Source: Vicinamibacterales bacterium
GTDB taxonomy: Bacteria; Acidobacteriota; Vicinamibacteria; Vicinamibacterales; UBA8438
Assembly (NCBI GenBank): GCA_965262555.1
Contig: OZ253543.1
Location: forward strand, 4,129,010 to 4,193,009
Direction: 5' to 3'
Length of the DNA stretch: 64,000 nucleotides
Part shown: positions 12,498 to 33,910 of the stretch, one piece after another
Layout: each line of letters starts with the position of its first letter
Position numbering within the stretch: the first letter of the stretch is position 1
The notes under the pieces: generated by a model
Database searches by the model: none
Seen by the model: the letters and a program-made list of their open reading frames with translations, nothing else
What the model was told of the DNA's origin: nothing
Position numbers and translations under genes: made by a program

Positions 12498-12500
12498 TGT

Positions 12501-16434: not shown

Positions 16435-16857
16435 CCGCTCACCGAGACGGCCCGGCCAACGCGGAGGCCCCGGCTCGGTCTGCCGTGGGACGTTCGCGCG
16501 GGGGCCCGTTTGTGGACGGCCGGGACGTTTCCCGTCCAGGCCGGGCCGCAAGGCCCATAACTGCTGTCTGAGCGGAGGGGCGGACGGCGTGTCACCCGAC
16601 AGGGTCGAAGCGCAGCGGAGAACGCGCACAGCGCGTTGACATGCCGTCCGTCCCGTAGCTACCCCGCCTCTCGTTGAACCCGCCGATCGGGCTCAGCCCG
16701 ACCACGTTGGCTGGCGAGCGGCAGCGACGCGAGCCGACCGGAGGCCGGCGACGGCGGGCTCCCCCCTTCCCGACTGACATGGACTCCTCCCGGCACTGCG
16801 ATGCAGCATCCTGTTGTGAGCAGTGAACGGTTCAGGACGAACCAGGAGGAGGCCGAC

Positions 16858-17886: not shown

Positions 17887-18207
17887 CCGCCCCTGCCACA
17901 ACGACTGCTGAGGGTTCGAACGAATGACATGGCATCTCGAACCGACCGACACCGCACGAGGCCGTTTCCCTGCCGGCGCACGTGACGCCGATTCCCGTAG
18001 TGGCCCGCGGTGTGCGACTGTCATGGTGGCCCGGAGACGGACGTCTCCAACTCAGAGGCCGAATATAGGTCCGCAGTCGGTTCGTCCCCTCGTGTCTTCG
18101 TTCCCGTTCCCGTCAGCACGCGGCAGGTGGAAGCGCAATTCCAGCCACACGCAAGGAGGCTGCGCCTGATCTCACCCTTCCAGGATGGATAAAACCCTTG
18201 CGTAGAT
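17887..18207 (+). ncRNA. candidate bridge/seek RNA region of the IS (long non-coding right end)
   Basis: About 320 nt of non-coding DNA lies between the transposase stop and the right IR. It contains ACCCTTCCAGGATGGA (18174-18189), a 13/16 match to the insertion target CCCCTTCCCGGAGGGA. It also contains ATATAG...CAGTC (18063-18078), which matches the joined element ends (..CATATA|GACTG..). This is inferred from published IS110/IS1111 biology and I did not fold it. Confidence 0.3.
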
Positions 18208-18238
18208 GGAGGAGTCCATATAGGAGGGAAGAGTGCAG

Positions 18239-18321
18239 CCGGGAGCGACCCGCCCGGTAGGTGTGACGGAGGAACACCTATTGGGCCAGAAAACCGCAGG
18301 TTTTCTAGGGGTCGCTCCCGG
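18239..18321 (+). repeat. three-way-junction element, short form, copy A (candidate ncRNA)
   Basis: CCGGGAGCGACC...GGTCGCTCCCGG encloses hairpins CCCGGTAGGTG-TGACGGAGGAA-CACCTATTGGG and AGAAAACC-GCA-GGTTTTCT. Confidence 0.7.
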
Positions 18322-18559
18322 CTTCTTTCGCGGCCCTATCCATGACCCCGAGGACGAGGCCAGGCGCGCAGCTCAGGCCGTAGATTCAGGGATTCCACGT
18401 GCCGGCCAAGGGACCCCGGAGTGTGACTGGGGTTGTGACTCGGCCGCCGAGATGCGATCACAGGCTGGCGCGGCGCAATCAGCCACCGGACGGTCTGAGT
18501 GTCGTCCTTCCAACGGTCGTGGAGGTCCTCGAAGCGTGCGTGCACGATCGCCGCGTGCC

Positions 18560-18906: not shown

Positions 18907-20163
18907 ATGGAACTCCCGACACGACCCCGGACCGCCAAGCCGAACGGCCGGCAGCCCCACCACGCGCTCTCGACCGCCTTCGTCCGAAACGTAGCACAGG
19001 CCGGACGCTACTGTGATGGCGATGGCTTGTACCTCGACGTGCAGCCGTCCGGGACGCGCAGCTGGGTACAGCGGCTCGTCATCCGCGGCCGCCGCCGCGA
19101 ACTCGGACTCGGCGGCTTCCCGCTCGTCCCGCTCAAGGACGCCCGCGCCCAGGCCCTCGCCAACCGCAGGCTCGCCCGCGCCGGAGGCGATCCGCTCGCC
19201 GAGAAGCGCCGACTCAAGAGCATGCCCACCTTTGCCGCCGCCGCCGAGGCCGTCCTGGCGCAGATGCGGCCCGGCTGGCGCAATCCCAAGCACGGCAAGG
19301 ACTGGCTGTCGAGCATGGCCCGCTTCGCCTTCCCGCGGCTCGGCAAGCTGCCCGTCTCCGAGGTGACGAGCGCCGACGTGGTCGAGGCGCTGCGGGCCGT
19401 CTGGCACGAGCGGCCGGCGACGGCGCGGCGGGTCCGTCAGCGCATCAGCACCGTCATGGAGTGGGCCGTGGCGCTGAACTACCGCGACGACAACCCGTGC
19501 AGCCGCATTGGACCGGTCCTCGGACCGCAGCAGGATCTCGTCCAGCACATGCGGGCGCTGTCCCATCGCGCCGTGGCGGCGACGGTCGGCGCGGTGCGGT
19601 CGTCCGGTGCGGCTCCCGCGGTCAAGCTGGCGTTCGAGTTCCTCGTGCTGACCGCCGCGAGATCCGGCGAAGTACGTGGAGCACGGTGGGACGAGATCGA
19701 CATGGCGAACCACGTGTGGACCGTCCCGGCCACGCGGACCAAGGCGAAGCGGGAGCACCGTGTCCCGCTGTGCCGCCGCGCCGAACAGATCCTCGACGCG
19801 GCCCAAGCGATCAGCAACGGGAACACGCTCGTGTTCCCGAGCGGACGCGGCAAGCGTCTCAACGACATGGCGTTGTCGGGACTGCTCAAGACGCTGGAGA
19901 TCCCCGCGGTTCCGCACGGGTTCCGCTCCACCTTCCGGGACTGGGCCGCCGAGGAGACGAACCACCCACGCGAGGTGGTCGAGGCGGCGCTGGCCCACGT
20001 CGTCCAGAACAAGGTCGAGGCCGCCTATGCGAGATCGGACCTGTTCGAGCGGCGGAGGCGGCTCATGAACGATTGGGCCGCGTACGTTGCCGACACACAT
20101 CGTCCGCATCCTCCGATCGCGGAACCGGCGGAACACGAGGTCGTCGGAAGCGCAGCACTGTGA
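18907..20163 (+). CDS. int: tyrosine integrase, P4-type, copy 2
   Basis: Paralogue of 15199..16434 (GDGLYLDVQPSGTRSWVQRLVIRGRRRELGLG ... HGFRSTFRDWAAEE ... AYARSDL). Confidence 0.9.
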   Translation: MELPTRPRTAKPNGRQPHHALSTAFVRNVAQAGRYCDGDGLYLDVQPSGTRSWVQRLVIRGRRRELGLGGFPLVPLKDARAQALANRRLARAGGDPLAEKRRLKSMPTFAAAAEAVLAQMRPGWRNPKHGKDWLSSMARFAFPRLGKLPVSEVTSADVVEALRAVWHERPATARRVRQRISTVMEWAVALNYRDDNPCSRIGPVLGPQQDLVQHMRALSHRAVAATVGAVRSSGAAPAVKLAFEFLVLTAARSGEVRGARWDEIDMANHVWTVPATRTKAKREHRVPLCRRAEQILDAAQAISNGNTLVFPSGRGKRLNDMALSGLLKTLEIPAVPHGFRSTFRDWAAEETNHPREVVEAALAHVVQNKVEAAYARSDLFERRRRLMNDWAAYVADTHRPHPPIAEPAEHEVVGSAAL

Positions 20164-20417: not shown

Positions 20418-20741
20418 CTGGCGAGGGTGAGTTGCCTCCCCCATCGAACCCCCACTGCCGCGCGCCTGAGTTCGGCTCGCGGGAGAGCGGGCGGCGTTGC
20501 CCCGCTCCTTCCTGGCGGTGCACTGACGGCTGATTCGCCGCACCGCGGTTACCGCCCGCCGCGTGTCGTCGGCGACGCTCGCCGGCCGGCCGGCGTTGCC
20601 TGTGCGCGGCCGTGGTCTCGCCGTAGACGTCGCTTCCGGCCGCGGTGGCGCGGTCGTTCCGGTGGCCGGCGCGCCCACCGTCTTGCCGCTGCTATCATTG
20701 CTCCGCACAAAGTTGTCGCCAGCCAGCGACGCCCGCGCCTG

Positions 20742-21092
20742 ATGCTTCCGACGATAGACCAACCCGTGACCGAAGGCGGCCTTACGAAGGCGGCGCTCGT
20801 CGAGGAGGTGGCCCGCGTCGCCGGCCTAACGAAGAAGCGCGCCGAAATCATCGTCGACACCGTGTTCGGCAACATTGCGGAGGCGCTGCACCAAGGCGAG
20901 AGGGTCGAACTCCGCGGCTTCGGCAGTTTCCGTCTCCGGCGCCGCGAGCCGCGCCGCGCCCGCAACCCCAGGACCGGCGACCGAGTGGACGTGCCGCCCA
21001 AGCGCGTCGCCTACTTCAAGCCCGGCAAGGCGCTGAAGGAGTTGATCAACCGGGAGCCGGCACAGGCCGCGCCGCCGCCGTTGTCCGAGTAG
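20742..21092 (+). CDS. HU/IHF-family DNA-bending protein (IHF-beta-like)
   Basis: Only the last 116 aa of ORF 20403..21092 look real: LTKAALVEEVARVAGLTKKRAEIIVDTVFGNIAEAL..GERVELRGFGSFRLRRREPRRARNPRTGDRVDVPPKRVAYFKPGKALK. Confidence 0.8.
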   Translation: MLPTIDQPVTEGGLTKAALVEEVARVAGLTKKRAEIIVDTVFGNIAEALHQGERVELRGFGSFRLRRREPRRARNPRTGDRVDVPPKRVAYFKPGKALKELINREPAQAAPPPLSE

Positions 21093-21317: not shown

Positions 21318-21877
21318 TGACAGAGACGCCGGCGCTTGGCGCGACGTAGTACCAGGCGACGACCGCCCGGTAAAGAATGGGCGTGTGGCAGTGCACGAGC
21401 ACGGCCACGGGATCATCGACGGCGAACACTGCCGGCCAGTGCCACCCGCACCACGAGGACATGCCGCCGACGGTCAGCAATAACCCGCCGCCGCGCCGCG
21501 TCATAGCGCGGCTCGTCGGCGTGTCCGCTCGCGCCCGTGGGCGGGCGTCGGATCCTTCCAGCATGGATAATTTCGGACGGAGCGACCCCGCTTGGCGAGG
21601 GGGGACGGGTGGGACACGGCGTGGTACACGACGTGGTACACCCCCCACTCGTCGAGCCGCGCTAGCGGCGAAAAAAGGGGGGTCGCTCCCGTCCTCTCCC
21701 TCTCCGCTGGCGCGGTTCGGCAGCGACGGTCCAGGACGAAAAACCCGAACAAAGACAGCGCAAAAGCGACGGGTGGCGTGTGACACCCCCCACGCTGTTT
21801 TTGGTACACCCCCCCTCCTGTCCGTGTACCATTCTGCTCGACCCCCGCCGTGACCCCCATCGTGACCCCGGAACGGT
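21318..21877 (+). repeat. outer inverted repeat, left copy (about 560 bp)
   Basis: Aligns by eye with the reverse complement of 32004..32565. Roughly nine in ten positions are identical in the stretches I aligned. Confidence 0.8.
21578..21690 (+). repeat. three-way-junction element, long form, copy D (candidate ncRNA)
   Basis: GGAGCGACCCC...GGGGGGTCGCTCC closes a long hairpin (GCTTGGCGAGGGGGG...CCCCCCACTCGTCGAGC) and a short hairpin (CCGC-GCTA-GCGG), followed by an A6 tract. Confidence 0.65.
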
Positions 21878-22222: not shown

Positions 22223-22575
22223 GTGTGATCTACCCTGTCGCTCGATCACGACAAGATAGAGGCCCGAACTTACACCAGAGATGCCGGACGGGAGGTGTAA
22301 GCAGACCCAGGGCCTCAACTTACACCCCGAGTCACACTTCAACTTACACCCCCGCACCCAATAAATCCTTTCATATCAACCAGATCCCAACACAACGTAC
22401 CACCCCCACGTACAGAGAATAGGTACAGGGGGGAGGTAGGGGAGCGACCCGGCGAAAACCTGGCGGTTTTCGGACCCGGCAGGCGTTCCTCCGTCACGCC
22501 TGCCGGGCCGGGTCGCTCCCCTCGAAATCGTCCCTCCGGGAAGGGAAGGGCTGCGGCTCGTGTGCGCCGTTGGCT
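22223..22575 (-). repeat. inner inverted repeat, left copy (about 350 bp; boundaries +/-30)
   Basis: Its reverse complement aligns with 30575..30923. The shared order is hairpin, junction element, AT-rich ATATGAAAGGA segment, GGTGTAAG iterons, GTGATC..GATCAC. Confidence 0.8.
22439..22521 (-). repeat. three-way-junction element, short form, copy B (candidate ncRNA)
   Basis: The reverse complement reads GGGGAGCGACCCGG CCCGGCAGGCG-TGACGGAGGAA-CGCCTGCCGGG T CGAAAACC-GCCA-GGTTTTCG CCGGGTCGCTCCCC. Confidence 0.7.
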
Positions 22576-22676: not shown

Positions 22677-24293
22677 ATGCCAGCACAACTACACTTCTGG
22701 CCTGTGAACGGACCCACCTTCACAGAGACTGCCGCCGATGCACTGTCACCTACAGGTGTCACAGCAGCACATCCGAGACGACCGGTTGAGATCGTCAAGG
22801 GCAAGACTCCTGAACGACTAAGGACGCCCCTTGACGGGCGACGCCGCCGCGACCAGCAGGGGGTACTGTGGCCCGGAACCCAGGTGCTCCGGCCAGCGCT
22901 AGTACCCGTCAACTCCCCGAATTGCGGCGAGACGGCCGCACGCCAAGCCCTGTACGACCGATTCGCCGATCGAGTTGAAGTCGACCCAGAATTCACACGA
23001 CGGGTCGTCTCGTACCAGGGCAATCGCGAGGTCCCCGGACTTCGCTGGATGAAGTACAAGGAGGGCTTTTCGCGCACGCTCGTCAACTACCTCCTCGACG
23101 AGTACCAACCCGAACATGTGCTCGACCCCTTCGCGGGGATCGGCACGACGGTGCTCACAGCTGCCGGACGCGGTGTGGAAGCCACCGGGATCGAGATCAT
23201 GCCGGTCGGCGTCCTGGTCGGCACCGGGATCGCTGCGGCAGCCAACGGCACGTCAAGGACGGTCTTCAACAAGGCCATCAGCGCGATCCGCTCTCGGATC
23301 GCTTCGCAGCGACCAGCTGCCCCTGAACACGCCTTTCCGCACGTGGCGATCACCGCGTCGGCCTTCCCGGTTGAGGCGGAGCGCGACATCGGGAAGGCTC
23401 GTGAGTTCATCGCCGGAATGGAGGATCGTGCAACGCAGAGGCTGATCAACCTCGGCTGCATGTCTGTCCTCGAGGCTGCGAGCTACACCCGCAAGGACGG
23501 TCAGTACCTTCGCTGGGACACTCGCTCGGGCCGCAAGTTGCGAGCGCGGATGGACAAGGGACCGATTCCGTCCTTCTCGGACGCGCTCGAACAGCGTCTC
23601 TCGGAAATGGCGTACGACCTCGACCCTGTCAAGCAGATCTTCGGCGGCGGTCGCCCGAGCTTCCGGGCCGGTTCTTCGCTCGATCTCCTCAAGACGCTGC
23701 CTGACGCCGCTTTCGACATGGTCATCACCTCGCCGCCCTACGCCAACCGATACGACTACACGCGAACCTACGCGCTCGAATTGGCATGGCTGGGTCTCGA
23801 CCGCGACGCGTTCGGCAGGCTTCGACAGGGCCTACTCTCGGCAACGGTCGAAAACCGGAGCAAGGTCGAGTTGCTGCGCGCAGTGTATGGTGACCGGCCG
23901 GAGCCCCTCGAACACGCGCTCGCACTGTACCGGCGCCAAGCAGCCCTACACGAGGTGCTGCACATTCTCCGTGGCCACGTCGACGAGCTCGGCAACCGGC
24001 ACGTCATTCGACTCCTAGAGGGGTATTTCCTGGAAATGGCGGTCATCGTGGCTGAGCTCGGCCGCGTAGTGCGTCCTGGCGGGTCTGTGATCATGGTGAA
24101 CGACAACGTGCAGTATCACGGCGAGGAGGTTCCGGTCGACTTCATCCTGTCGGATTTCGCCGAGCAGTCTGGATTCGCCTGCACGGACATTTGGACTCTC
24201 GCAAGGGGCAAGGGCAACGCGAGCCAGCAAATGGGGCGATTCGGCCGGCGCGAGATCCGCAAGTGCGTCTACCGCTGGGAACGGATCGGATGA
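22677..24293 (+). CDS. N6-adenine/N4-cytosine DNA methyltransferase (motif I before motif IV, alpha-type order)
   Basis: LDPFAGIGTTVLTAA (FxGxG motif) comes about 200 aa before MVITSPPYANRYDY (SPPY motif). The first ~90 aa look like a dubious extension, so the true start may be later. Confidence 0.8.
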   Translation: MPAQLHFWPVNGPTFTETAADALSPTGVTAAHPRRPVEIVKGKTPERLRTPLDGRRRRDQQGVLWPGTQVLRPALVPVNSPNCGETAARQALYDRFADRVEVDPEFTRRVVSYQGNREVPGLRWMKYKEGFSRTLVNYLLDEYQPEHVLDPFAGIGTTVLTAAGRGVEATGIEIMPVGVLVGTGIAAAANGTSRTVFNKAISAIRSRIASQRPAAPEHAFPHVAITASAFPVEAERDIGKAREFIAGMEDRATQRLINLGCMSVLEAASYTRKDGQYLRWDTRSGRKLRARMDKGPIPSFSDALEQRLSEMAYDLDPVKQIFGGGRPSFRAGSSLDLLKTLPDAAFDMVITSPPYANRYDYTRTYALELAWLGLDRDAFGRLRQGLLSATVENRSKVELLRAVYGDRPEPLEHALALYRRQAALHEVLHILRGHVDELGNRHVIRLLEGYFLEMAVIVAELGRVVRPGGSVIMVNDNVQYHGEEVPVDFILSDFAEQSGFACTDIWTLARGKGNASQQMGRFGRREIRKCVYRWERIG

Positions 24294-25198
24294 CGTCCCA
24301 CGACGACCTGACACGCTCCAAACTTCTCGCGGAGCGAATACGACAGCGCACAGATGAGAAGGTCCGGCGGCTCGTCGACAGATTCAAGGGTCACCTCGAC
24401 TACGTGACGGCCAAGGAGTTGCTGATTAGCGAACCGGCGTGGGAGTACGTCACCTCGTCAGGCCTCGAGCCGCGTAGAGTGTTCGCACATCCCGAGCTCC
24501 TTCAGGAGCATCCCGAAGTCTCGTTCTACTATCGGGGAATCGCTCTCTTGTCGCTGAAACGGGTGCGCGCTGCGGCAGGGGTCGATGTCAAGGGATGGGA
24601 GACCAAGGACCGCGTCCGGCCCGTGTCTCAGCAGGACGCGCTTCAGGTCTGTCGCGTCTACAACAGCGTGATTTCCTCGATCATCGAGGGCACGACCGAA
24701 TGGAGCTTGGGAAACGGGTATCGGAACATCCTGAACACCATGGGAATAACCTTGGACGGGATGTTCCGAAACGTCATCGGCCAAGACGCCGAGCGGCTAA
24801 TCAAGACGAAAATCGCCGACTGGTTGGACGAGCAGGGATTGATCCTCGAGCGGAAGAGCGCGAGCAGGTTCCGCCTCCCGGAGGACGTGACGATGGTGTA
24901 CGGGAGCGAACCGGACATCCGCTTCAGCCAGAACGAAGATGTCGTCGCCACGATTGAGATCAAAGGCGGGAAGGACCCCGCCGGCGCGCTCGAACGACTT
25001 GGGGCGATGCAGAAGAGCTTCGCCGAAACACCGCCCCGCTGTCAGAACTTCTTGATCGCAGGGGTGGTCACGACGGAAATGGAGTCGCGACTCGCCCAGC
25101 ACAACGTCAAGGTCTTCATTCTTGACGACCTGCTGAACGACGACGACTGGAACGCGTTCACGACCGAGCTGTTCCACCACGCCCTGAGAATTGCGTAA
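24290..25198 (+). CDS. putative type II restriction endonuclease (PD-(D/E)xK-like)
   Basis: Trimmed to the ATG at 24290, which overlaps the methyltransferase stop as ATGA. The candidate catalytic signature is SEPDIRF...VATIEIKGGKD. No other recognisable domain is present. The assignment rests on context plus this motif. Confidence 0.5.
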   Translation: MTSHDDLTRSKLLAERIRQRTDEKVRRLVDRFKGHLDYVTAKELLISEPAWEYVTSSGLEPRRVFAHPELLQEHPEVSFYYRGIALLSLKRVRAAAGVDVKGWETKDRVRPVSQQDALQVCRVYNSVISSIIEGTTEWSLGNGYRNILNTMGITLDGMFRNVIGQDAERLIKTKIADWLDEQGLILERKSASRFRLPEDVTMVYGSEPDIRFSQNEDVVATIEIKGGKDPAGALERLGAMQKSFAETPPRCQNFLIAGVVTTEMESRLAQHNVKVFILDDLLNDDDWNAFTTELFHHALRIA

Positions 25199-25384: not shown

Positions 25385-26116
25385 TCAGGGTCTCGGTCCG
25401 ACGATGTGAATCGTCTGGCCGTTACGCATCGTCGTGATGGTTCCCCAGTCTTCCGCAGTCAAGTCAGCCATGACCGCTTTCGCTCGTTCTTCGTCCTTGA
25501 GATGCGCCCAGAACCAGCCGGACGTCGCGAGCATGGAGATCGTGGCCAGGAGCATTGCTGTCCAGAACCAGTCGCCCGGATAGACAGGCCATCCAGCCTC
25601 GTCGACGGGATTGCCCAACACTTGGCCCTTCCCGCCGTGTACGAAGTCGTTGAGTACCGGTGCGAGGTTCGCCCACCGCTGGCTGAGGTCCGGCCACCCG
25701 GTGCGAGCTGCCAAGTCCTTGAGGGTGCGACGGTTCACTCTGATTCTCTGCGCCACGAGCTTCTGCCACCCATCATCGTCGCCCACGTAGGCGGTGAGCA
25801 GCACCTGCTTCATCAGCGCCTCCAGTGTCGGACGGGCGAGCGCGAAACCGGAGGCGTATCGGTTGGAGTGAAAGGCGTAAGCCATGGTCACTGCATGATT
25901 CACAATGATCGCGGTGTACGAACCCGCGTACTTCTCGCGCGCTGACACGCTCTGCCCGCGGGTCAGGAGACCATGTGGAGCATGCCGTGCAAGCCTGTTG
26001 TAGCGGTCCAGGACGGCCTGCTTCACGATGTGGAACTCCTTATGATCCGTCGGCCGGTCCGCTGTATTGATCTCGTACATGTGCAGATGGTCGCGCTTGG
26101 GCGGGCCGTGGGGCAA
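25385..26116 (-). CDS. hypothetical helical protein, possibly DUF5677/AbiV-like
   Basis: 243-aa ORF in lower-GC cargo DNA with its own upstream region after a terminator. The weak resemblance (ALARPTLEALMKQVLLTAYV ... LNDFVHGG) to AbiV-type proteins is from memory only. Confidence 0.5.
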   Translation of the reverse strand: MPHGPPKRDHLHMYEINTADRPTDHKEFHIVKQAVLDRYNRLARHAPHGLLTRGQSVSAREKYAGSYTAIIVNHAVTMAYAFHSNRYASGFALARPTLEALMKQVLLTAYVGDDDGWQKLVAQRIRVNRRTLKDLAARTGWPDLSQRWANLAPVLNDFVHGGKGQVLGNPVDEAGWPVYPGDWFWTAMLLATISMLATSGWFWAHLKDEERAKAVMADLTAEDWGTITTMRNGQTIHIVGPRP

Positions 26117-26300
26117 CGTTCATCTCAGGGACGGCCAGACGGTGCGCGTGCCCGTACGTGCATCATAGCTCTTGCCACGAGCAGGTTCCAAGCGCGGGCA
26201 CCACCGGGAGGTCAGTGCTTCGGTCGGGAGTCTCGGTGCGTCCGACGTCGCTGCGTTTGGTTCGCGGCAGTCCGTTACGGAACGAGGGGTACGGCGGGGG

Positions 26301-26336
26301 GAACAAACAACTAACGTCGGCACAAAACGTTAGTTG
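26301..26336 (-). terminator. intrinsic terminator after the 1391-aa gene
   Basis: On the minus strand: CAACTAACGT-tttgtgcc-ACGTTAGTTG followed by TTTGTTC, starting 9 nt after the stop codon. Confidence 0.65.
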
Positions 26337-26344
26337 TCAATAAG

Positions 26345-29300
26345 TTAGTGGATTGTTGCATCGGAAGCCCTGGAAACACCGCCATCTCGACTCGCGATCA
26401 ACAGGCACTCGTTGATTGACGTGTGCGTTGACAGATTCGGATCTCGCGGGTCATGGCTGCACACGATCATGTCGATGTGGAACCGTGACGCGAGGAACTG
26501 TCGCTCGCGGAGCCCCGACGACCCCGTACAAGCGGTCACCGGTATGATCTTCGCCAGAACGCCGCTATCCTGGGCCAGGACCTTCTCGGCGAGCGGTGTG
26601 AACATCGTGCTGATGCTGTTCGAGTCGATGACGCCCGCCGCTTCCGCGTCGCTGGCCGCCAGCCGGTCGCGGATCTGAAGCTCCCGCCTTTGCAGGGCCT
26701 TGGTGACTTCCGGGGTGAACTTCCGCCCTTTCTTGTCGTTCGCGGTGAACGGCGGATTCATCATCACGATCCGCCGGTCCTCGACATCCTGGACGACTTC
26801 GGGGTCCACGGCCGACGACTCGAACAGAGCGCCCTGTCCCTGCTTGTCGCCTTCGGCGGCGTTCGCCGCCGCCGACCCCACCACGTCCTCATCGGTCAGC
26901 AACTCCAGCGTCCCGAGCCTCACGGTCTCGCCGTTGACGGAGCCGTACGGCATCGCCCGCAGAGCCATCTTCCGGTAGTCGATCAAAAGGTTGCCCAGCG
27001 TCATGCGCCCCGCCGCCATCTGCAAGGACACGGGATTGATGTCCAGACCCGTCACGAGCCGCTCGACGGCGTACTTGTGGAATTCGGCCGCGGTCCGTTC
27101 GTCGCCGCCGGCCTTGCGGATCCGATCCTTGACCACCTCCAAGTAGGCGTTCAACAGCGTGCCGCTCCCGCAGGCCAGATCGGCTATCTTGAGCCGCTTC
27201 CACGTTCGCCGCTCCTTCCACGCGGTTTCGCCGGTCGCATCGAGCGCCAGCTCGGCCAGCAGCCGCGCCGCCGGCTGCCGCGTGAAGAACGCACCGTCGG
27301 ACGCCTGGTTGCCCAGGACCCGGCTGAATAGCTCGCCGGCGTACTCCATGCCCATCGACACGTAGAGCTCGGCGTTCTCGCTCGCCCAGGCGGCGACCGC
27401 TCGCACGGCCTGATTGACACCACCGTGCGCGTCCGCTGCCGCCAGCGCCTCCAGAACATCTAGCGCCGGCCGGAACACCGGCTCGTAGTCGTACCGCAGG
27501 ACGGCCATCCACGCCGCCCGCAGCACCTTGACGGGTTCGCTTCCGGTCGCCACGTCGTGAAGCCGGCCGACACGGGCCAGATCCGCCGCCTGCCCCTTCG
27601 CGTCCTCCAGCCGCGCGTGCAGGAGCGCGGCGTTCATGAGGAGCAACACGCTGACCGTGCACGCATCGGCGTGGGCGTCCGCCTCCTGTAAGTGCTCCAT
27701 GCCGAGCACCGAACGCAGCCGGCCCTCCAGCCCTTCGCGGCTCAAGTGCGCGGATGCGCGACGCACCGGCTCCATCAACAGGTTAAAGTCTCGGACCTCG
27801 TTCCCGCGCAGCCCGGACTTCTCCATCACCTCGACGCGCAGATCGCGTCCTACGCCGTCCTTCCGGATCTGCTCCAGGAGCCGCTGCGTTGGCGACTGTC
27901 CGGCCCGACGCCCCTCCTTGGAACCATCGCGCCGGGAGGCGCGCCGTCGGGGCCGTCGCGGCAACGGGTCGAGTGCCTCGGCCACCTCGCGCGCCCGCTC
28001 CACGGTCTTCGCCACGTCCACGCCGCCCTGACGCTCCGCGGACCGCGCCGCCGCCTGCACGGTGCAACGGACGCCGCCGCGACCGCGCTGGACCACCAGC
28101 ACAGCCGGCGACCCATCCAGCATCTTTTCGTCGTCCGCAGCCGACCTGTCGGTGAAGCGCTCAGGCTCGCCGCGGATCGCCGGAGCCTGCCGCCACTCAA
28201 AGCCCTTGGCCTCCGTCAGGTACTCGGTGACAGGAGCCGCGCCCGCGGTCGAAGCCTCACGCCACGCCGGCACTTCCGCCTGCGCCACGGCGTCTTCAGC
28301 GTGGCCCCGAGGTCCCGTCCACACGCCCATGCGCGTCTCGCCGCCGTCGCGGACCACCAGCGGCTGGCAAACCGGTTCTTCAGCCTCCGGCGGCACATAG
28401 ATCTGCAACAGGCTCGATATCTCGTCCTCGATACGTCCATCGTGCGCCCGCAGCGCCCGCAACACCTCACCGAGCATCTTCCACTCGTCGCCGAGTGTGT
28501 CCATCGACAGACTCGTCTCCGCGTCGATGCCCCGCGGCAGCGGCACCGGCACGATGACGTACCCGTGTTCTTTCCCCGGTGCTCGGCGCATGCAGCGGCC
28601 GACGATCTGGATCACGTCGGTCGGGCTGCGGCGCGGGGCCAACAGCGCCACCGCATCGAGACTGGGACTGTCCGTCCCCTCCCCGAAGATCCCGACGTTG
28701 GCGATCCCGCGCGGATTCTCGCCATCCGCCGCTGCGAGATCGCGCAGCGCCCGTCGCCGTTCGCGCACCGGATGTCCCGCGTCGAGATGCTCAACGGCAT
28801 ACTGCCGACCAGCGCCATCGAAGCCGCCCTCGGCGAAGTACTGCTCGATCTCCAAGCGCCCCTCGTCGCTGTTGAGCCACTTCGCCATCTGGTCCGACCG
28901 CTGGACCTTGTTCAGGAACGCCAGGGACCGGCTCACCCGCACGCTGCCGTCGTCTCCGACCGCGCCTCCGGCAAGCGTCACGCCGTAGACCAGCCAGGAG
29001 AGCGCCTCGCGGGTCGTCAGCCCGCGCGACTCCTGCGACTGCTCGAATCGCTGGACGATGCGATTGGCCGCCGTCCACGCTCGCTCATTAACGCCGATCG
29101 CGATGATCCGATAGTCGGACAGAAAGCGCTTCTCGACCGCCTCCTTGTACGGGAGCCGGTAGGCCACCGGGCCGAAGATCGACTGGTCCGACATGCTCGC
29201 CACGATCCACTTCGTGCGGTCAATACGGGCGACCTTCACGTTGCTCGCATCGAAGACGCGGGGCGTCGCCGTCTGGTACAGCCGGTACCGGGCCGGAAAC

Positions 29301-30520
29301 GCCTCCTGGTCGTGACACAGCGTGAACACACGCATCCGCTCCGCTCGCCGCTGACTCTTCACCGGCCGCAACTGAGCCGTCCGGTGCGCCTCGTCCAGAA
29401 TTAGGACCTGCGCGAACTGGCGCTCCGCCAGCAGCGCGTCCGCCGTGTGATGCGCCGACTGGTATGTCGAGAAGATGATGTGCAGGTCGGTCGAGTCCAC
29501 GCCAGCGCGAAGCCAGTCGGCGACCGCCTCGGCGCTCTGGGACACCCGGCAACCGACATCGGCCGCGCGGACCTGTCCGGCGTCCCGTGTCGGATCCGCC
29601 GCGAGATCCGGATCCCGCTCGACATCGACATGTCCCGCCGTCGCGTCGCTGCACACCGCCAGCGTCCGCACCGGGCGACCGATGTGCGACAGGTACTCGC
29701 GCCGCACCTGCGCGATCAATGCGATGCTCGGCACGAGCACCACGCCAAGGTCGCCGGGTCCCGACAACTCCGACATGATCCGCATCGACACGCGGGTCTT
29801 GCCGGTCCCGCACGGCAGCACGAGCGTCGCCCGGGCTGGGTCACGCGGCATCCAATCCGCCGGGTTGCGGCCGAGCCAGCGGTCCCGATGCTCGGCCAAC
29901 CCGGCGCGAAGCGCCTGCACGCACGCGGCCACGGCCTCTTGCTGCATAGCCGTACGCGGGTCGGGTTCAGTCGACGCCCGTTCCCGTTCCCTCGCATCCG
30001 CCAGCGCTTCGGCCAGCGCCGCCTCGAAGTCGATGAACGTCACCTCGGCGACGGCGGCGGCATCCTCCGTCGCCGCGCTCCGGCGGGCCTCGGCTACCAT
30101 CCAGCGCTCAGCGAACACCGACGACGGAGCAGCCCCGGCGAACTGCTGCACCTGCTTCGTCGTCACGGCCCCGTCGCCGCTCCGCGCCTTGCACTGGATC
30201 GCCACACGGGAACCGTCATGCTTGACGGCCACGAGGTCGATGCCGGCGTCGTGCGACGGCAGGGGAACGCCTACCGTCGTCCGCTCCGGCCACTCCAGAT
30301 AGGGCCAGCACTCGGCGATCTCCCAACTCGGAACATCCCGCGCATGCCGCAGCACCGCGTCCTCGAACTGCGTCCCGTCGAACCGGCGCGCGTCCCTGTC
30401 GGCTTGCAGGGACACGAGCGTCTCGTTGAAACTCGAAACCTGATCCGTCATGATCGTGCGGAAGTGTACATCGCGAGGGCCGTCAGTCGGAATGGAACCG
30501 TCAACCGTTACGGTCGCCAC
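26345..30520 (-). CDS. single-polypeptide Mrr-like nuclease / SF2 helicase-type ATPase / N6-adenine methyltransferase (Type ISP-like R-M fusion)
   Basis: - N-terminal nuclease motif: HDAGIDLVAVKHDGSRVAIQCK.
- Walker A: LPCGTGKTRV.
- DEAH box: LILDEAHRT.
- Helicase-C: GIFGEGTDSPSLDAVALLAPRRSPTDVIQIVGRCMRR.
- Methyltransferase motif I: IADLACGSGTLL.
- Methyltransferase motif IV: MMNPPFT.
- Only about 140 aa follow NPPF.
- An alternative ATG start lies at 30451. Confidence 0.8.
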   Translation of the reverse strand: MATVTVDGSIPTDGPRDVHFRTIMTDQVSSFNETLVSLQADRDARRFDGTQFEDAVLRHARDVPSWEIAECWPYLEWPERTTVGVPLPSHDAGIDLVAVKHDGSRVAIQCKARSGDGAVTTKQVQQFAGAAPSSVFAERWMVAEARRSAATEDAAAVAEVTFIDFEAALAEALADARERERASTEPDPRTAMQQEAVAACVQALRAGLAEHRDRWLGRNPADWMPRDPARATLVLPCGTGKTRVSMRIMSELSGPGDLGVVLVPSIALIAQVRREYLSHIGRPVRTLAVCSDATAGHVDVERDPDLAADPTRDAGQVRAADVGCRVSQSAEAVADWLRAGVDSTDLHIIFSTYQSAHHTADALLAERQFAQVLILDEAHRTAQLRPVKSQRRAERMRVFTLCHDQEAFPARYRLYQTATPRVFDASNVKVARIDRTKWIVASMSDQSIFGPVAYRLPYKEAVEKRFLSDYRIIAIGVNERAWTAANRIVQRFEQSQESRGLTTREALSWLVYGVTLAGGAVGDDGSVRVSRSLAFLNKVQRSDQMAKWLNSDEGRLEIEQYFAEGGFDGAGRQYAVEHLDAGHPVRERRRALRDLAAADGENPRGIANVGIFGEGTDSPSLDAVALLAPRRSPTDVIQIVGRCMRRAPGKEHGYVIVPVPLPRGIDAETSLSMDTLGDEWKMLGEVLRALRAHDGRIEDEISSLLQIYVPPEAEEPVCQPLVVRDGGETRMGVWTGPRGHAEDAVAQAEVPAWREASTAGAAPVTEYLTEAKGFEWRQAPAIRGEPERFTDRSAADDEKMLDGSPAVLVVQRGRGGVRCTVQAAARSAERQGGVDVAKTVERAREVAEALDPLPRRPRRRASRRDGSKEGRRAGQSPTQRLLEQIRKDGVGRDLRVEVMEKSGLRGNEVRDFNLLMEPVRRASAHLSREGLEGRLRSVLGMEHLQEADAHADACTVSVLLLMNAALLHARLEDAKGQAADLARVGRLHDVATGSEPVKVLRAAWMAVLRYDYEPVFRPALDVLEALAAADAHGGVNQAVRAVAAWASENAELYVSMGMEYAGELFSRVLGNQASDGAFFTRQPAARLLAELALDATGETAWKERRTWKRLKIADLACGSGTLLNAYLEVVKDRIRKAGGDERTAAEFHKYAVERLVTGLDINPVSLQMAAGRMTLGNLLIDYRKMALRAMPYGSVNGETVRLGTLELLTDEDVVGSAAANAAEGDKQGQGALFESSAVDPEVVQDVEDRRIVMMNPPFTANDKKGRKFTPEVTKALQRRELQIRDRLAASDAEAAGVIDSNSISTMFTPLAEKVLAQDSGVLAKIIPVTACTGSSGLRERQFLASRFHIDMIVCSHDPRDPNLSTHTSINECLLIASRDGGVSRASDATIH

Positions 30521-30574: not shown

Positions 30575-30923
30575 CGGCGAGCGCCGGCCGCGACCGTGGC
30601 AACCCTTCCCGGAGGGACATCTTCGATGGGGAGCGACCGGCCCGGCAGGTGTGACGGAGGAACGCCTGCCGGGTCCGCAAAACGCCAGTTTTGCGGCGGG
30701 TCGCTCCCATACCTCACCCCTGTACCTTTTCTGTACGTGGGGGGCGGTATGTGGTGTTGGGATCGAGTTGATATGAAAGGACTTATTCGGTACAGGGGTG
30801 TAAGTGAAACTGTGACTGGGGGTGTAAGTTGAGGCTCCGAGGCTGCTTACACCTCCCGTCCGGCACGATGCGTGTAATCTCTGCCCCTGTCCCGGTGTGA
30901 TCAGGCGACCGGGTGGATCACAC
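30575..30923 (+). repeat. inner inverted repeat, right copy
   Basis: See 22223..22575. Confidence 0.8.
30628..30708 (+). repeat. three-way-junction element, short form, copy C (candidate ncRNA)
   Basis: GGGGAGCGACC GG CCCGGCAGGTG-TGACGGAGGAA-CGCCTGCCGGG T CCGCAAAAC-GCCA-GTTTTGCGG C GGGTCGCTCCC. Confidence 0.7.
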
Positions 30924-32003: not shown

Positions 32004-32565
32004 ACCGCTCCGGGGTCGAGGCGGGGGTCACGGCGGGGGTCGAGCGGAATGGTACACGGACAGAGGGGGGGGTGTACCAAAAACAGAGTGGGGGGTGTAA
32101 CACACCGGCCTTCCAATTTCCGCCGTCGCTATTGGGTTTTTTCGTTATAAGCCGTCTGCCCCGAACCGCGCCAGCGGAGAGGGAGAGGACGGGAGCGACC
32201 CCCCTTTTTTCGCCGCTGGCGCGGCTCGACGAGTGGGGGGTGTAACACGTCGTGTACCACGCCGTGTCCCACCCGTCCCCCCTCGCTAAGCGGGGTCGCT
32301 CCCGTCCGAAATCATCCTTGCTGGAAGGCTCAGACGCCCGCCAACGGGCGCGAGCGGACACGCCGACGAGAGGCGTGATGACGCGGCGCGTCGTCGGGTT
32401 TTTGCTGACCGTCGGCGGCATGTCCTGGTGGTGCGAGTGGCACCGGCCGGGACTGTTCCCCGTCGATGATCCCGTGGCCGTGCTCGTGCACTGCCACATG
32501 CCCAATCTCTACCGGGCGGTCGTCGCCTGCTGCTGCGTCGCGCCAAGCGTCGGCGTCCTTATCGC
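32004..32565 (-). repeat. outer inverted repeat, right copy
   Basis: See 21318..21877. Confidence 0.8.
32191..32303 (-). repeat. three-way-junction element, long form, copy E
   Basis: The reverse complement matches copy D. The short hairpin loop is GCCA instead of GCTA, and one G-to-A change creates an A-C mismatch in the long stem. Confidence 0.6.
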
Positions 32566-32650: not shown

Positions 32651-33910
32651 TCACGATGACGCGCCCGCCCGCGCGGTATCGGCAAGATGAAAAGCGACCA
32701 CCCGCCCGCGCGCCCCGGCAAGGTACGCCTCCCAGTCGTTCATCAGACGCCGCCGCCGCTCGAACAGGTCCGACCGCGCGTAGGCCGCCTCGACCTTGTT
32801 CTGGACAACGTGCGCGAGCGCCGCCTCGATAACCTCGCGCGGATGGTCGGTCTCCTCGGCCGCCCAGTCCCGGAACGACGAACGGAAGCCATGTGGAACG
32901 CAGGCGATGCCGCAGCGTTCGAGCAGCCGGCGAAACTGCTTGGTATCCAGCGGTATGCCGCCCCTGTCGGTGAACACCAACGGACCCGCGTCGCCGATCA
33001 TCCGCGCCTCGCACAGGATCTCGGTGGCCCTGCCGCACAGCGGCACCCGGTGGTCGCGCTTCATCTTCATCCGCGCCGCCGGAAGGGTCCACACGTGGTC
33101 CGTCGTGTCCATCTCGTCCCACGTGGCCCCGCGCACCTCGCCCGAACGTGCGGCCGTGAGCACCAGTAGCTCGCACGCCAGCTTGTCGACGGGTTTCTCC
33201 CCCGACGCCCGCACTGTCGCCACCGCAGCGGCGACCTCGCGGTGCGGCAGCGCCCGCATGTGCTCGACGATGTTGCGCTGCGGGCCAAGCACCGGCCGGA
33301 CCCGGTCGGCGGGGTTGTCGCTGCGCAGGTTCATCGCAATGGCCCACTCCAGCACGGCATGGAGGCGCTGCCGAACGGCCTTGGCGATGACCGGCTTGGC
33401 GTACCAGATGGGGGAGAGGATCGCCAGCACGTCGGCGCTCGTGACCTCCGAGACGGGCCGGGCGCCGATGCGCGGGAAGGCGTAGCGTTGAAGGCTGTTC
33501 CGCCACGCCCGGATCTGTTCGGCGTTCTTCCAGCCGCCCTGCTTCTGCTCGATCACGGCGGCGGCGGCCTCGGCGAAGGTGGGTATGCTCTGAAGGCGGC
33601 GCTTGTCGGCGAGCGGATCGCCGCCTTCGCGGGCGAGCTTGCGGTTGGCGACGGCCTTCTCGCGGGCCTCGGCGAGCGAGACGAGGGCGACGCTGCCGAG
33701 TCCGAGTTCGCAGCGCCGGCCGCGGATGACGAGGCGCTGGATCCAGCTTCTCGCGCCGGTCGGCTGGACGTAGAGGTAGAGTCCGTTGCCGTCGATGTGG
33801 TGTCCCGGCGGCGCACTGCGGACGAAGGCAGGGGCGAGGGCGTTGTGGGGATGGCGTCCCCGGCGCTTGGTTCTGCGGGGTGAGGGGGCGGCATCCGTCT
33901 CTGTATACAT
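32651..33910 (-). CDS. int: tyrosine integrase, P4-type, copy 3
   Basis: 419 aa, a full-length paralogue (GNGLYLYVQPTGARSWIQRLVIRGRRCELGLG ... HGFRSSFRDWAAEE ... AYARSDL). Confidence 0.9.
   Translation of the reverse strand: MYTETDAAPSPRRTKRRGRHPHNALAPAFVRSAPPGHHIDGNGLYLYVQPTGARSWIQRLVIRGRRCELGLGSVALVSLAEAREKAVANRKLAREGGDPLADKRRLQSIPTFAEAAAAVIEQKQGGWKNAEQIRAWRNSLQRYAFPRIGARPVSEVTSADVLAILSPIWYAKPVIAKAVRQRLHAVLEWAIAMNLRSDNPADRVRPVLGPQRNIVEHMRALPHREVAAAVATVRASGEKPVDKLACELLVLTAARSGEVRGATWDEMDTTDHVWTLPAARMKMKRDHRVPLCGRATEILCEARMIGDAGPLVFTDRGGIPLDTKQFRRLLERCGIACVPHGFRSSFRDWAAEETDHPREVIEAALAHVVQNKVEAAYARSDLFERRRRLMNDWEAYLAGARGRVVAFHLADTARAGASS

Follow-up and report, generated by a model that had tools for sequence, protein, structure and literature searches.

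What is the short branched repeat that stands beside the first gene of the defence operons in this DNA, and does it act as duplex DNA, as RNA or as a single folded strand? A preliminary description had proposed three copies of a three-way-junction element in the window, by which we mean the whole 64-kb stretch of DNA that was analysed. We used two covariance models, R1 and R2, and all three copies are recovered by R1 with 77-102 bits (E 5e-14 to 3e-19). Their positions, with the helices of Copy A as read from the sequence, are as follows.

30604..30729, plus strand: Copy A (R1 93.2 bits; R2 118.5 bits, E 2.6e-28; fold -60.7 kcal/mol, z -7.6)
30604-30619, plus strand: P0 of Copy A, followed by the linker
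30628-30638/30698-30708, plus strand: P1 of Copy A
30641-30652/30662-30673, plus strand: P2 of Copy A, with loop GACGGAGGA at 30653-30661
30675-30683/30688-30696, plus strand: P3 of Copy A, with loop GCCA, then a pyrimidine tail up to 30729
22419..22544, minus strand: Copy B, comprising P0, three-way junction and tail, core 22441-22519 (R1 102.1 bits; R2 142.5 bits, E 1e-34; fold -69.8 kcal/mol, z -8.3)
18216..18340, plus strand: Copy C, a variant with a different 3' flank, core 18242-18318 (R1 77.2 bits; R2 78.6 bits)

On the named strand the window copies reach RNA folding energies of -60 to -70 kcal/mol (z -7.6 to -8.3), and none of 200 shuffles folded as well. Folding with DNA parameters gave -40 to -49 kcal/mol (z -6.4 to -8.8), the sense strand being the better one in only two of the three copies.

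The junction of about 80 nt that had been described is real, but the full conserved unit measures about 125 nt and consists of the mini-hairpin P0, a linker, the three-way junction P1/P2/P3 and a pyrimidine tail, beyond which conservation runs on for some 180-325 nt as flank repeats. In the same way P2, described as an 11-bp stem with an 11-nt loop, holds as a stem but has 12 bp and the 9-nt loop GACGGAGGA. The family consensus reads CCTTCC..GGGGAGCGACC..GACGGAGGA..GGTCGCTCCCC, and the P1 sequence, the distal part of P2 and the GACGGAGGA loop are nearly invariant. P0 is a palindrome, CCTTCC...GGAAGG, with the pattern CCTTCC-N-GNA-N'-GGRA. Its loops are GGA (48), GCA (19) or GAA (5), and those of P3 are GCCA (37), GCA (26) or GGCA (10); a single one of the 176 P0 and P3 loops, a GCGA in P0, is of the GNRA type. 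The linker often contains GACAAT, GAAGAT or GACGAT about 7 nt 5' of P1, while the 3' tail is moderately conserved (60-90%) and frequently carries CCTG(A/T)CC. On paper, the GGAGG of the invariant loop could pair with CCUCC in the tail as a pseudoknot, and the 3' arm of P0 could alternatively pair with the tail, which in both cases is a generic pyrimidine tract.

Covariance models built from the copies gave 118 matches, 88 of them distinct, mostly in Vicinamibacterales and Bryobacterales (Acidobacteriota), and one genome has about 38 copies along one 7.3 Mb contig. In the window, tRNA-Ser is the sole Rfam 15 family to pass the gathering thresholds and none does so for the element; with E relaxed to 5 over 16400-35000, nothing but spurious matches to miRNA models comes up for the element, at 21-25 bits against thresholds of 47-53. 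We thus rejected a catalogued RNA family, including the C4/CI antisense RNA of P1/P4, tRNA-like elements and Acido-type motifs, since no Rfam 15 family reaches threshold. PLSDB plasmids contain no match, and 18 pattern matches in IMG/VR all arose by chance, none with the full element; on these two results we rejected a phage or plasmid origin. We found no earlier description in the literature on sequence motifs and on Acidobacteriota mobile elements. As judged from Rfam, PLSDB, IMG/VR and the literature, the element appears to belong to no catalogued family, as had been proposed.

Integrase islands and their borders

The copies lie in islands whose other parts in the window are listed below.

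32651..33910, minus strand: Integrase A, 419 aa, Arm-DNA-bind_3 + Phage_int_M + Phage_integrase (Pfam), co-directional with the Copy A cargo
18907..20163, plus strand: Integrase B, 418 aa, same architecture (Pfam), co-directional with the Copy B cargo
15199..16434, plus strand: Integrase C, 411 aa, a paralogue located 5' of Copy C (Pfam; tblastn)
22677..25198, plus strand: island B cargo, an N6/N4 DNA methyltransferase at 22677-24293 and an XcyI-like restriction endonuclease at 24191-25198 (Pfam N6_N4_Mtase, RE_XcyI)
25385..30520, minus strand: island A cargo, a 1391-aa Mrr-nuclease/helicase protein at 26345-30520, then a 243-aa ORF at 25385-26116 (Pfam Mrr_cat_2, ResIII, Helicase_C)
20703..21092, plus strand: gene for an HU/IHF-like DNA-binding protein, island B (Pfam Bac_DNA_binding; tblastn)
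16770..18215, plus strand: IS110-family insertion sequence, ends approximate (Pfam DEDD_Tnp_IS110 + Transposase_20; flank comparison)

The 243-aa ORF has no family match in Pfam. The 1391-aa protein probably also contains a methyltransferase region: Pfam reports none, yet residues 230-704 match a Type ISP enzyme with N6_Mtase (30.8%, tblastn), and a homologue at locus L095 carries ISP_coupler, Type_ISP_C and N6_Mtase domains. The three window integrases are 63-67% identical to each other; relatives of Integrase A at 60-90% identity occur at 76 loci, and at locus L037 copies of the element stand within 2.6 kb of integrases only about 45% identical.

The canonical island begins with the integrase promoter and a P4-type integrase, continues with an interval rich in repeats (in the most frequent layout some 650-700 nt long), then the element on the opposite strand, and passes through P0 into variable cargo that runs in the integrase direction, the element being antisense to both. 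A facing integrase lies within 3.5 kb of 39 of the 88 distinct copies, at a median gap of about 700 nt after the integrase stop; 42 copies have no full-length integrase within that distance, many of them at the edges of 8-kb blocks. At some 20 integrase-centred loci the element, on the minus strand, follows the integrase stop codon within roughly 1 kb, and the distances cluster around 700 nt. In 22-23 of about 33 cases the first gene beyond P0 is oriented outward, with the element behind it, and the genes on that side belong to type I, ISP, MmeI-type, Dcm and GmrSD systems, in keeping with the position next to the first defence gene that had been noted. The distance to the cargo gene, given earlier as about 100-150 nt, is 156 nt for Copy B (22521 to 22677) and 108 nt for Copy A (30520 to 30628). 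In a few islands an AAA_25 primase-helicase-like gene adjoins P0, and homologues of the HU/IHF-like protein are encoded about 74 nt from P1 at L046, L064 and L115.

Similarity between islands ends sharply at the CCTTCC of P0, about 25 nt 5' of the P1 core. Islands L144 and L146 are 98-99.6% alike over integrase, element and hsdMSR at two genome sites, while L144 and L156 have the backbone alone in common, up to P0. One hsdM flank was found joined to different P0/element variants, and at L195 this hsdM flank is followed by CCTTCCGCAGG and then by unrelated sequence; truncated copies at L073, L019 and L035 are joined to other DNA inside the element. By these comparisons the element is part of the conserved integrase backbone and marks the junction between backbone and cargo. 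The left ends of the islands lie about 150 nt upstream of the integrases, and on the right an IS66-family element abuts the cargo of L144 and L156; no relatives were found of the junction between islands A and B near 25.2-25.4 kb. The window holds no repeat of the tRNA-Ser 3' end, and a tRNA or tmRNA occurs within 10 kb of only two of 60 integrase-centred loci, so we rejected the tRNA-gene att site of P4-type integrases; the integrases of these islands are not tRNA-targeting in general.

The P0 hairpin of Copy C is interrupted by the IS110-family insertion, the transposase gene of which (16801-17886) was overlooked when the surroundings were first described as free of genes for RNA-guided enzymes. 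The insertion has subterminal inverted repeats ATGGACTCCTCC / GGAGGAGTCCAT, and the left part of the interrupted flank (16732-16770) matches the uninterrupted copy of L076. A homologous insertion occupies the equivalent place in L005, and only these two of the screened copies have such a neighbour. P0, at the outer edge of the element, is both the cargo-exchange point and the point of IS110-family insertion. A bridge RNA or seekRNA of IS110/IS1111 elements was rejected as an identity for the element, since it lies outside the IS ends (~16770-18215) and no IS homologue is near the other screened copies bar L005.

Covariation and the strand that folds

The differences among the window copies that had been called structure-preserving are indeed so: a P2 pair that is T-A or C-G, another that is T-A, C-G or T-G, an outer P3 pair that is A-T versus C-G, and a shifted P3 register in the 30.6 kb copy. 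Over the 88 distinct copies, 22 of the 39 pairs are changed on both sides, in 199 cells, and none of 500 shuffles reached the observed covariation, these statistics overstating independence since model-fitted alignments lean to structure and the sequences are related. In the model-fitted alignment 91.8% of cells are paired, compared with 36-54% in slid controls, and nine compensatory pairs are present even in a MAFFT alignment made without fitting to the model. Covariation backs all four helices, P0, P1, P2 and P3, and a smaller sequence set agrees. The small upstream hairpin of the preliminary description is real as well, its loop-closing pair covarying family-wide (CG 39, UA 19, GC 13, AU 4). 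A peptide can be set aside, as was proposed: reading frames are not kept and the helices covary instead.

The mismatches point to one strand. There are 82 G·U against 22 A·C (binomial p 2.6e-9, relatedness ignored), 49 purine-purine G·A against three pyrimidine-pyrimidine C·T, and 54 G·G against 23 C·C. Of all mismatches, 75% contain G; G·U occupies no more than about 2.5% of cells, and the G·G and G·A mismatches are as common as it is. Of 86 copies, 82 fold more stably on the named (sense) strand, the mean difference being 6.5 kcal/mol. Action as one single strand, as opposed to a duplex protein site, is supported by these asymmetries, in agreement with the earlier proposal. Because the element sits opposite to both integrase and cargo genes, the strand selected for folding is their template strand. 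Lagging-strand exposure as the cause of the bias is ruled out by the mixed orientation of the copies on the 7.3 Mb contig (20 plus and 18 minus by tally), and a lox-like duplex reading of P2 is disfavoured by the wobble asymmetry.

Possible roles of the folded strand

The reading that we tentatively favour is that the element serves a family of small integrase-borne defence islands as a structural module acting in cis, a folded ssDNA site for priming or transfer, not a duplex and probably not an RNA. When an excised island becomes single-stranded, by helper conjugative mobilisation, rolling-circle copying or uptake, P0 and the junction would fold. A conserved trans-acting factor, perhaps a priming or transcription enzyme of the host or else a relaxase or Rep of a helper, would find displayed on the fold the invariant P1 duplex together with the GACGGAGGA and G(N)CA loops. 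Complementary-strand synthesis, possibly transcription, would begin at the fold and proceed through P0 into the cargo, and the defence genes, as a rule headed by a methyltransferase, would be double-stranded and ready for expression at an early stage. The ssi signals, Frpo and the sso elements of rolling-circle plasmids work through priming or transcription start on folded ssDNA. A relaxase, Rep, transfer gene or ssDNA stage for these islands is hypothetical, and we identified no relaxase, mobilisation protein or helper element for them.

What leads us to prefer folded ssDNA over an antisense ncRNA is that the element has no conserved promoter or terminator and carries GNA/GNNA loops instead of GNRA. 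Consensus scans found no promoter- or terminator-like site beside the element, and there is no U-run 3' of P1; a promoter or terminator was therefore rejected, together with a sigma-54 or ECF reading of linker and loop, a misfit by eye. By inspection the stems hold no -35/-10-like duplex, so a promoter mimic of the Frpo type, in which -35/-10 hexamers are rebuilt in the stem, is unsupported by the sequence. The GNA/GNNA loops and the G-rich mismatches recall stable DNA mini-hairpins and the stability order of DNA mismatches; this case for DNA over RNA, which draws on general thermodynamics, is weak.

Among known systems, the G4-type and PriA-type ssi, the F-plasmid Frpo, ssoA/ssoU and the ssiA/ssiB of IncQ oriV resemble the element in being strand- and orientation-specific folds of about 100 nt with several hairpins and conserved unpaired bases. 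They also lie in the non-coding backbone DNA of mobile replicons, opposite-strand pairs being possible, and their folded strand is the template for adjacent leading genes; the asymmetry, the fixed orientation and the DNA fold (z -6.4 to -8.8) of the element agree with strand- and orientation-specific folded ssDNA. It differs from them in residing in a chromosomal integrase island, and its junction, closed by an invariant 12-bp stem and accompanied by a GNA mini-hairpin that stands apart, corresponds to no ssi architecture described. We know of no sequence similarity to ssi, sso or Frpo. The oriT of integrative mobilisable elements (MGIs, SGI1-type) is likewise a hairpin-containing, strand-specific cis element, found in minimal islands of integrase, cis site and defence or restriction-modification cargo, and the pyrimidine tail of the element, with its recurring CCTG(A/T) 3' of the fold, recalls some nick regions. 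The architecture here is a three-way junction, however, with a tail that is only 60-90% conserved next to an invariant loop; a typical oriT has a nick region of strong conservation, and the moderate conservation seen here counts against the ssDNA reading. The T-shaped terminal hairpins of parvovirus ITRs and the folded 3' ends of linear Streptomyces replicons also have a long stem closing two short hairpins, with GNA-type loops and sheared G·A pairs, and some 2.8-kb units bear inverted copies at both ends, but the element is internal to integrated islands that have no gene for a Rep, terminal protein or telomere resolvase.

Several other explanations have to be weighed against a folded ssDNA site. 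A small ncRNA of about 80-125 nt, antisense to the integrase-cargo unit, is a possible though rather doubtful one; its junction and GGAGG loop would bind a protein or a complementary CCUCC and control integrase-to-cargo read-through, integrase expression or cargo translation. Covariation with G·U exceeding A·C is the classic signature of structured RNA, the fold computed for RNA is very stable (-60 to -70 kcal/mol, z about -8), the invariant loops and P1 hint at a specific binding partner, the linker motifs GACAAT, GAAGAT and GACGAT are weakly -10-like, and many ncRNAs of mobile elements have no recognisable promoter. Yet conservation stops at P0, which leaves no conserved -35 and an upstream sequence that changes with the cargo; a terminator-like hairpin with a U-run is absent, the loops are GNA triloops or GNCA and not GNRA/UNCG, G·G and G·A mismatches as frequent as G·U (about 2.5% of cells) are unusual in RNA helices, and Rfam has no matching family. 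We give the least credence to a duplex feature, either nested palindromes bound by dimeric proteins or a cruciform bound by HU/IHF, acting as an architectural element or insulator between integrase and cargo. The palindromic P0, the ability of both strands to fold and the HU/IHF-like gene adjoining the element in several islands would suit it; wobbles and purine-purine mismatches with a strand asymmetry are unexpected for a duplex or a symmetric cruciform, and half-site recognition explains poorly why P1 is nested around P2 and P3 with all three covarying.

It seems unlikely that P0 and the junction are a strand-specific recombination site like integron attC/attI, at which the tyrosine integrase or a partner exchanges or captures defence cargo and sometimes inverts or joins islands. 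The cargo does differ exactly from P0 outward over a common backbone, and the hsdM flanks and the copies fused inside the element fit this, as do the inverted element pairs that flank the integrase (L096, L110+L063, L200) or the cargo (window, L122). P2 is lox-like, its 12-bp arms being inverted around an asymmetric spacer of 9 bp. Like attC, the element is structured, strand-specific and next to a tyrosine recombinase and variable cargo with sharp borders, its helix sequences vary with pairing kept and conserved mismatched positions, and IS110/IS1111-family insertions target such sites; in attC sites the recombined strand is the cargo template strand, as is the selected strand here. Selection and homologous recombination alone can give sharp backbone/cargo borders, however, and R/L boxes and a GTTRRRY-type core (RYYYAAC ... 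GTTRRRY) are absent from the consensus. There is one element per island, upstream of multi-gene operons, and not an array of cassettes each followed by its own site, and the recombinase is P4-type (Arm-DNA-bind_3 + Phage_int_M), not IntI. Core sites usually track integrase specificity, whereas P1, distal P2 and the loop are nearly invariant beside integrases 63-67% or about 45% identical, and the attP junction is expected at the island ends, about 150 nt upstream of the integrase. The bolder version, in which a non-integron, P4-type tyrosine integrase lineage captures and swaps whole defence operons at P0 and the junction, these being a single-stranded, folded site of recombination or entry, an integron-like platform that evolved independently in Acidobacteriota and serves as a landing pad for RNA-guided IS110-family recombinases, seems to us quite improbable. 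It is more improbable still that we are dealing with the end structure of a selfish repeat, MITE-like or a transposon end, that travels with integrase modules or inserts beside them and has no role in the island. Such a repeat would account for the roughly 38 copies in one genome, the copies that lack a full-length integrase nearby, the facing copies 470 nt apart without an integrase (L066, L076), the 2.8-kb units with inverted flanks of about 800 nt around an integrase, and the IS110-family insertion in P0, IS110-family elements targeting other repeated palindromes too. The element is, like REP/BIME and MITE sequences, a multi-copy GC-rich palindromic intergenic repeat, but REP/BIME palindromes measure about 35 nt, whereas it is 125 nt long and branched, with an invariant asymmetric loop and flanks of backbone or defence cargo. 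Its position, distance and orientation to the integrase are fixed in canonical islands, most copies being single and internal; we found no target-site duplication and no RAYT, HUH/DDE or other transposase partner in the flanks, and it is conserved across integrase lineages and Acidobacteriota orders, its fold being under purifying selection.

Acidobacteriota rank with the commonest bacteria of soils, and hardly any work has been done on their mobile elements. The analysis defines a large family of small integrase islands, with clean borders, that carry restriction-modification operons and other defence operons from place to place. As the element pinpoints the backbone/cargo junction, its covariance model could serve to locate defence islands in metagenomes and to set their limits. 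If it is folded DNA, a branched structure would join the short list of DNAs that act single-stranded (attC, ssi/sso, oriT hairpins, Frpo) and would point to an unseen route of island transfer or replication; if RNA, it would represent a new class of ncRNA, well supported and tied to the regulation of defence islands. On either reading, the invariant loop and the P1 clamp predict a conserved binding partner.

Flank repeats and a second junction

Conservation outside the unit comprises a 3' flank module and a further pair of junctions.

30730..30886, plus strand: conserved 3' flank of Copy A, in inverted repeat with 22261-22407 (82%)
22261..22418, minus strand: conserved 3' flank of Copy B, the same module as at 30730-30886 (sequence comparison)
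21575..21693, plus strand: second, larger three-way junction with a P1 clamp, GGAGCGACCCC/GGGGGTCGCTCC, as in the element (R1 28.7 bits; fold -74.8 kcal/mol, opposite strand -65.0 kcal/mol)
32188..32306, minus strand: counterpart of the second junction in island A (fold -81.5 against -74.0 kcal/mol for the opposite strand)

The flank of Copy A, situated between the element and the 3' end of the integrase, contains iteron-like repeats, GGTGTAAG/GTGACTG, and the start of a palindrome, TGTGATC-N13-GATCACA; the module recurs at L096 (326 nt, 78%) and family-wide. Of the five copies counted in the preliminary description, three are copies of the element and the other two are probably these related junctions with a P1 clamp. 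The one at 21575-21693 has GGTACAC repeats inside and folds better on the integrase-sense strand, and the one at 32188-32306 falls within a block that is 88-89% identical between 32004-32571 and 21311-21877. The pairing of element and second junction on opposite strands, like the facing copies 470 nt apart at L066 and L076, resembles the paired ssi signals of strand-displacement origins and speaks for the ssDNA reading. The second junction stands about 750 nt from the element, with the iteron-like repeats in between.

The branched fold and its conservation

The preliminary description placed a three-way junction at 30628-30708 (+), 22439-22521 (-) and 18239-18321 (+), and the window sequence bears these copies out. 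All three fold into the proposed junction (-60 to -70 kcal/mol, z -7.6 to -8.3), none of 200 shuffles being as good for any copy, and every structure-preserving difference listed between them was confirmed. A longer inverted repeat includes the 22.4 and 30.6 kb copies (22261-22545 versus 30603-30886, 82-85% identical).

Stems of the 30.6 kb copy
30628-30638 with 30698-30708, +, P1
30641-30652 with 30662-30673, +, P2, loop GACGGAGGA
30675-30683 with 30688-30696, +, P3, loop GCCA

The element did not match any catalogued family: Rfam gave no match at gathering thresholds, nor with E relaxed to 5, and a text search for its motifs in a literature collection gave no relevant match. When the loop motif was scanned as an exact pattern in one genome per species, at least 118 stretches were returned; among those listed, about 50 carry the whole structure, nearly all of them in MAGs of the Vicinamibacterales and Bryobacterales; isolated ones are labelled Gemmatimonadetes or other phyla. 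Searching with a covariance model limited to the 79-nt core recovered 54 strong copies, and a second model of 126 positions, which adds the upstream hairpin (P0) and the tail, recovered 118 matches, 88 of them distinct. About 38 copies are spread along one 7.3 Mb Vicinamibacterales contig, and none was found in the IMG/VR viral contigs and PLSDB plasmids searched.

Consensus of the element
P0: CCTTCC-N-GNA-N'-GGRA
Linker, P0 to P1: about 9 nt, usually A/T-containing
P1: GGGGAGCGACC, with P1' GGTCGCTCCCC
P2 loop: GACGGAGGA, identical in 67 of 88 copies
P3 loop: GCCA, GCA or GGCA
Pyrimidine tail: CCTG(A/T)CC often present

Standard pairs fill 91.8% of cells in the 88 distinct sequences, and both partners have changed at 22 of the 39 pairs (199 cells); the copies are related and the alignments behind these covariation statistics were fitted to the model, and a plain MAFFT alignment, made without such fitting, already shows nine compensatory pairs. 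None of 500 column shuffles attained any observed covariation measure, and pairing falls to 36-54% when the 3′ partners are slid by one to three columns. One P3 pair occurs as AU 33, CG 22 and GC 19 and another as CG 62, AU 13 and UA 8, while the loop-closing pair of P0 occurs as CG 39, UA 19, GC 13 and AU 4. The inner ten pairs of P1 are nearly constant and its outer pairs covary (GC 61, CG 10, UA 2). The tail 3′ of the junction is only moderately conserved.

Mismatches distinguish the two strands. On the strand where GGGAGCGACC comes first, hereafter the selected strand, we counted 82 G·U/U·G against 22 A·C/C·A (binomial p 2.6e-9, relatedness ignored), 49 G·A/A·G against 3 C·T/T·C, with tandem GA/AG recurring in P3, and 54 G·G against 23 C·C; these counts omit two outer P0 positions that are unpaired in most copies. 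The selected strand also outfolds its complement in 82 of 86 copies, by a mean margin of 6.5 kcal/mol. Neither a protein site in duplex DNA nor a symmetric cruciform would yield such asymmetry, so the single-stranded form already proposed from the window copies is well supported.

Place of the element in integrase-borne islands

Islands are ordered integrase, repeat-rich interval, element, P0 and cargo, with integrase and cargo co-directional. The selected strand is antisense to both and is thus their template strand.

Integrases and insertion sequence of the window
15199-16434, +, integrase C (Arm-DNA-bind_3, Phage_int_M, Phage_integrase)
16801-17886, +, IS110-family transposase (DEDD_Tnp_IS110, Transposase_20)
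about 16770-18215, +, IS110-family insertion sequence, subterminal repeats ATGGACTCCTCC/GGAGGAGTCCAT
18907-20163, +, integrase B (Arm-DNA-bind_3, Phage_int_M, Phage_integrase)
32651-33910, -, integrase A (Arm-DNA-bind_3, Phage_int_M, Phage_integrase)
34036-34431 (region 34036-34822), -, degraded integrase fragment of the same lineage, directly beside the tRNA-Ser(GCT) 3′ end
34858-34951, -, tRNA-Ser(GCT)

Island B carries integrase B, an HU/IHF-like gene, the 22.4 kb element, a methyltransferase and an XcyI-like endonuclease. Island A runs in the opposite direction, with integrase A, the 30.6 kb element, a 1391-aa Mrr-helicase protein related to a Type ISP enzyme and a 243-aa ORF; the two islands join tail to tail at about 25.2-25.4 kb.

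Among 76 fetched loci centred on integrase A relatives, about 20 have the element on the opposite strand, less than about 1 kb past the integrase stop and clustering near 700 nt. Taking all distinct copies, 39 of 88 face a full-length integrase within 3.5 kb (median about 700 nt), and many of those without one lie at the edges of 8-kb blocks. Other arrangements occur: facing copies 470 nt apart with no integrase (L066, L076), and copies placed on either side of one integrase within inverted modules of about 800 nt (L096, L110 with L063, L200). A tRNA or tmRNA gene lies within 10 kb in only 2 of 60 integrase-centred loci, so tRNA genes are not the general target of this lineage. The degraded integrase beside tRNA-Ser, in whose region ATATGGGGGACCATGTGGGGGACCAT repeats occur (34768-34800), may be the remnant of an older tRNA-associated island.

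P0 forms the border between backbone, the integrase-to-element part, and cargo. Upstream of CCTTCC, copies lack similarity unless the cargo is common to both. Two loci of one genome, L144 and L146, agree at 98-99.6% identity from the integrase through the element to a type I hsdMSR operon, whereas L144 and L156 have a common backbone exactly to P0 (position 12019) and different cargo beyond. A single hsdM upstream flank was found joined to several P0/element variants; in L195, CCTTCCGCAGG comes next after this flank, and the DNA beyond is unrelated. The first genes past P0 encode type I HsdM/HsdR, Type ISP, MmeI-type, Dcm and GmrSD enzymes, a ResIII helicase, an AAA_25 protein and a conflict-system glycosyltransferase; where a confident ORF lies within 600 nt (about 33 cases), the first one points away from the element in 22-23.

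In the 18.2 kb copy the P0 hairpin is split by an IS110-family insertion that the preliminary description missed. The sequence on its left (16732-16770) matches the corresponding flank in the L076 copy, which is uninterrupted. A homologous IS (63% protein identity across 114 matched residues) is found at the equivalent position in L005, a Bryobacterales copy, which suggests that this IS lineage takes P0 as a specific target. Its guide RNA could lie within the 330 nt between transposase stop and IS end. We rejected the element itself as that guide RNA, since its position is outside the IS and no such neighbour accompanies the other copies screened.

In three islands an IS66-family element (DDE_Tnp_IS66; at 19119-21194 in L144, 15370-17664 in L156 and 19443-21194 in L153) abuts the distal cargo end, and the right ends of these islands are therefore hidden. 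At least 25 copies of the integrase lineage occur in one Vicinamibacterales genome (L119-L194, especially contig CBDCCO010000007.1), many of them truncated fragments and many arranged head to head or tail to tail. New islands seem to insert into resident ones, as in L144, which abuts an integrase truncated at about codon 38.

Folded DNA or RNA

We consider the finding of the element solid and interesting: its fold, its selected strand, its position and the border at P0 are demonstrated, and what we infer is a single-stranded stage, a trans-acting partner and the direction of synthesis. Our tentative preference is for a folded single-stranded DNA site acting in cis in the island backbone, most probably as a single-strand initiation or entry signal. 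Should the island pass through a single-stranded stage, the element, presumably with a trans-acting partner, would start complementary-strand synthesis towards the cargo, and perhaps transcription too. An antisense non-coding RNA is possible but rather unlikely: the covariation and wobble signature is classic for RNA, and the conserved loop and stem sequences are typical of RNA-protein recognition, but the expected promoter place holds no conserved sequence, we found no site resembling a promoter or terminator, and P1 is not followed by a U-run. The loops are GNA triloops or G(N)CA, with one GNRA only among 176 P0 and P3 loops, and G-containing mismatches predominate in the helices. Such loops and mismatches are closer to stable DNA mini-hairpins and to the stability order of DNA mismatches than to RNA helices, and the element folds well under DNA parameters. 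Against folded DNA, however, most islands lack transfer or replication genes, the stems show no promoter mimic, the tail is only moderately conserved and copy orientation is mixed along the chromosome.

The border at P0 would also suit a strand-specific recombination site for cargo exchange, which we regard as unlikely, and a selfish repeat is less probable still. A duplex or cruciform architectural site, which the mismatch asymmetry argues against, is the most doubtful reading. Identification as attC, REP, IS110 guide RNA or tRNA att site failed the defining tests. The behaviour of the element comes closest to that of the folded, strand-specific DNA signals found in plasmids and integrons; its branched architecture and recombinase context set it apart from them.

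A second junction and neighbouring repeats

A second, larger three-way junction, also missed earlier, is present in both islands and in L136, L159 and L165.

Second junction
21575-21693, +, island B, P1 clamp GGAGCGACCCC/GGGGGTCGCTCC
32188-32306, -, island A, same P1 clamp as the element

Its long arm contains GGTACAC repeats. It lies within a block (21311-21877 and 32004-32571) that is 88-89% identical between the islands, despite integrases only 63% identical. It folds better on the integrase-sense strand, so that two structures lie on opposite strands about 750 nt apart.

Between element and second junction are iteron-like repeats and a palindrome. On the integrase side of the element, tandem repeats of about 12 nt (ACTTACACCCCC / AGTCACACCTCC, GGTGTAAG on the other strand) accompany the palindrome TGTGATC-N13-GATCACA (window 30780-30890 and 22261-22360; L144 11700-11860); they resemble iterons or arrayed protein-binding sites. 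Both islands carry a 32-nt sequence (20385-20416 and 31449-31480; 97% identity), upstream of the HU/IHF-like gene in island B; it contains a perfect 16-bp palindrome, CCTTGTGTACACAAGG, which may be an operator. A 50-nt block containing CTCCTCCGCTCCGCNCCGGCCCTTGGCAGGGTGAC (window 21254-21303; L144 6804-6853; L023 7402-7451) recurs at many loci, 86-91% identical across many islands and about 150 nt past the integrase stop in canonical ones. Short GC-rich repeats, GGTGCGCCGGCCTCCAGGCCGGC, at 48221-48313 and 59376-59496 occur both directly and inverted; they are unrelated to the element and seem to be a palindromic repeat family of their own. Just beyond the island region, a hipBA-type toxin-antitoxin pair occupies 11232-12908 (-), with a HipA-like kinase (421 aa) and an HTH_31 gene (135 aa) upstream.
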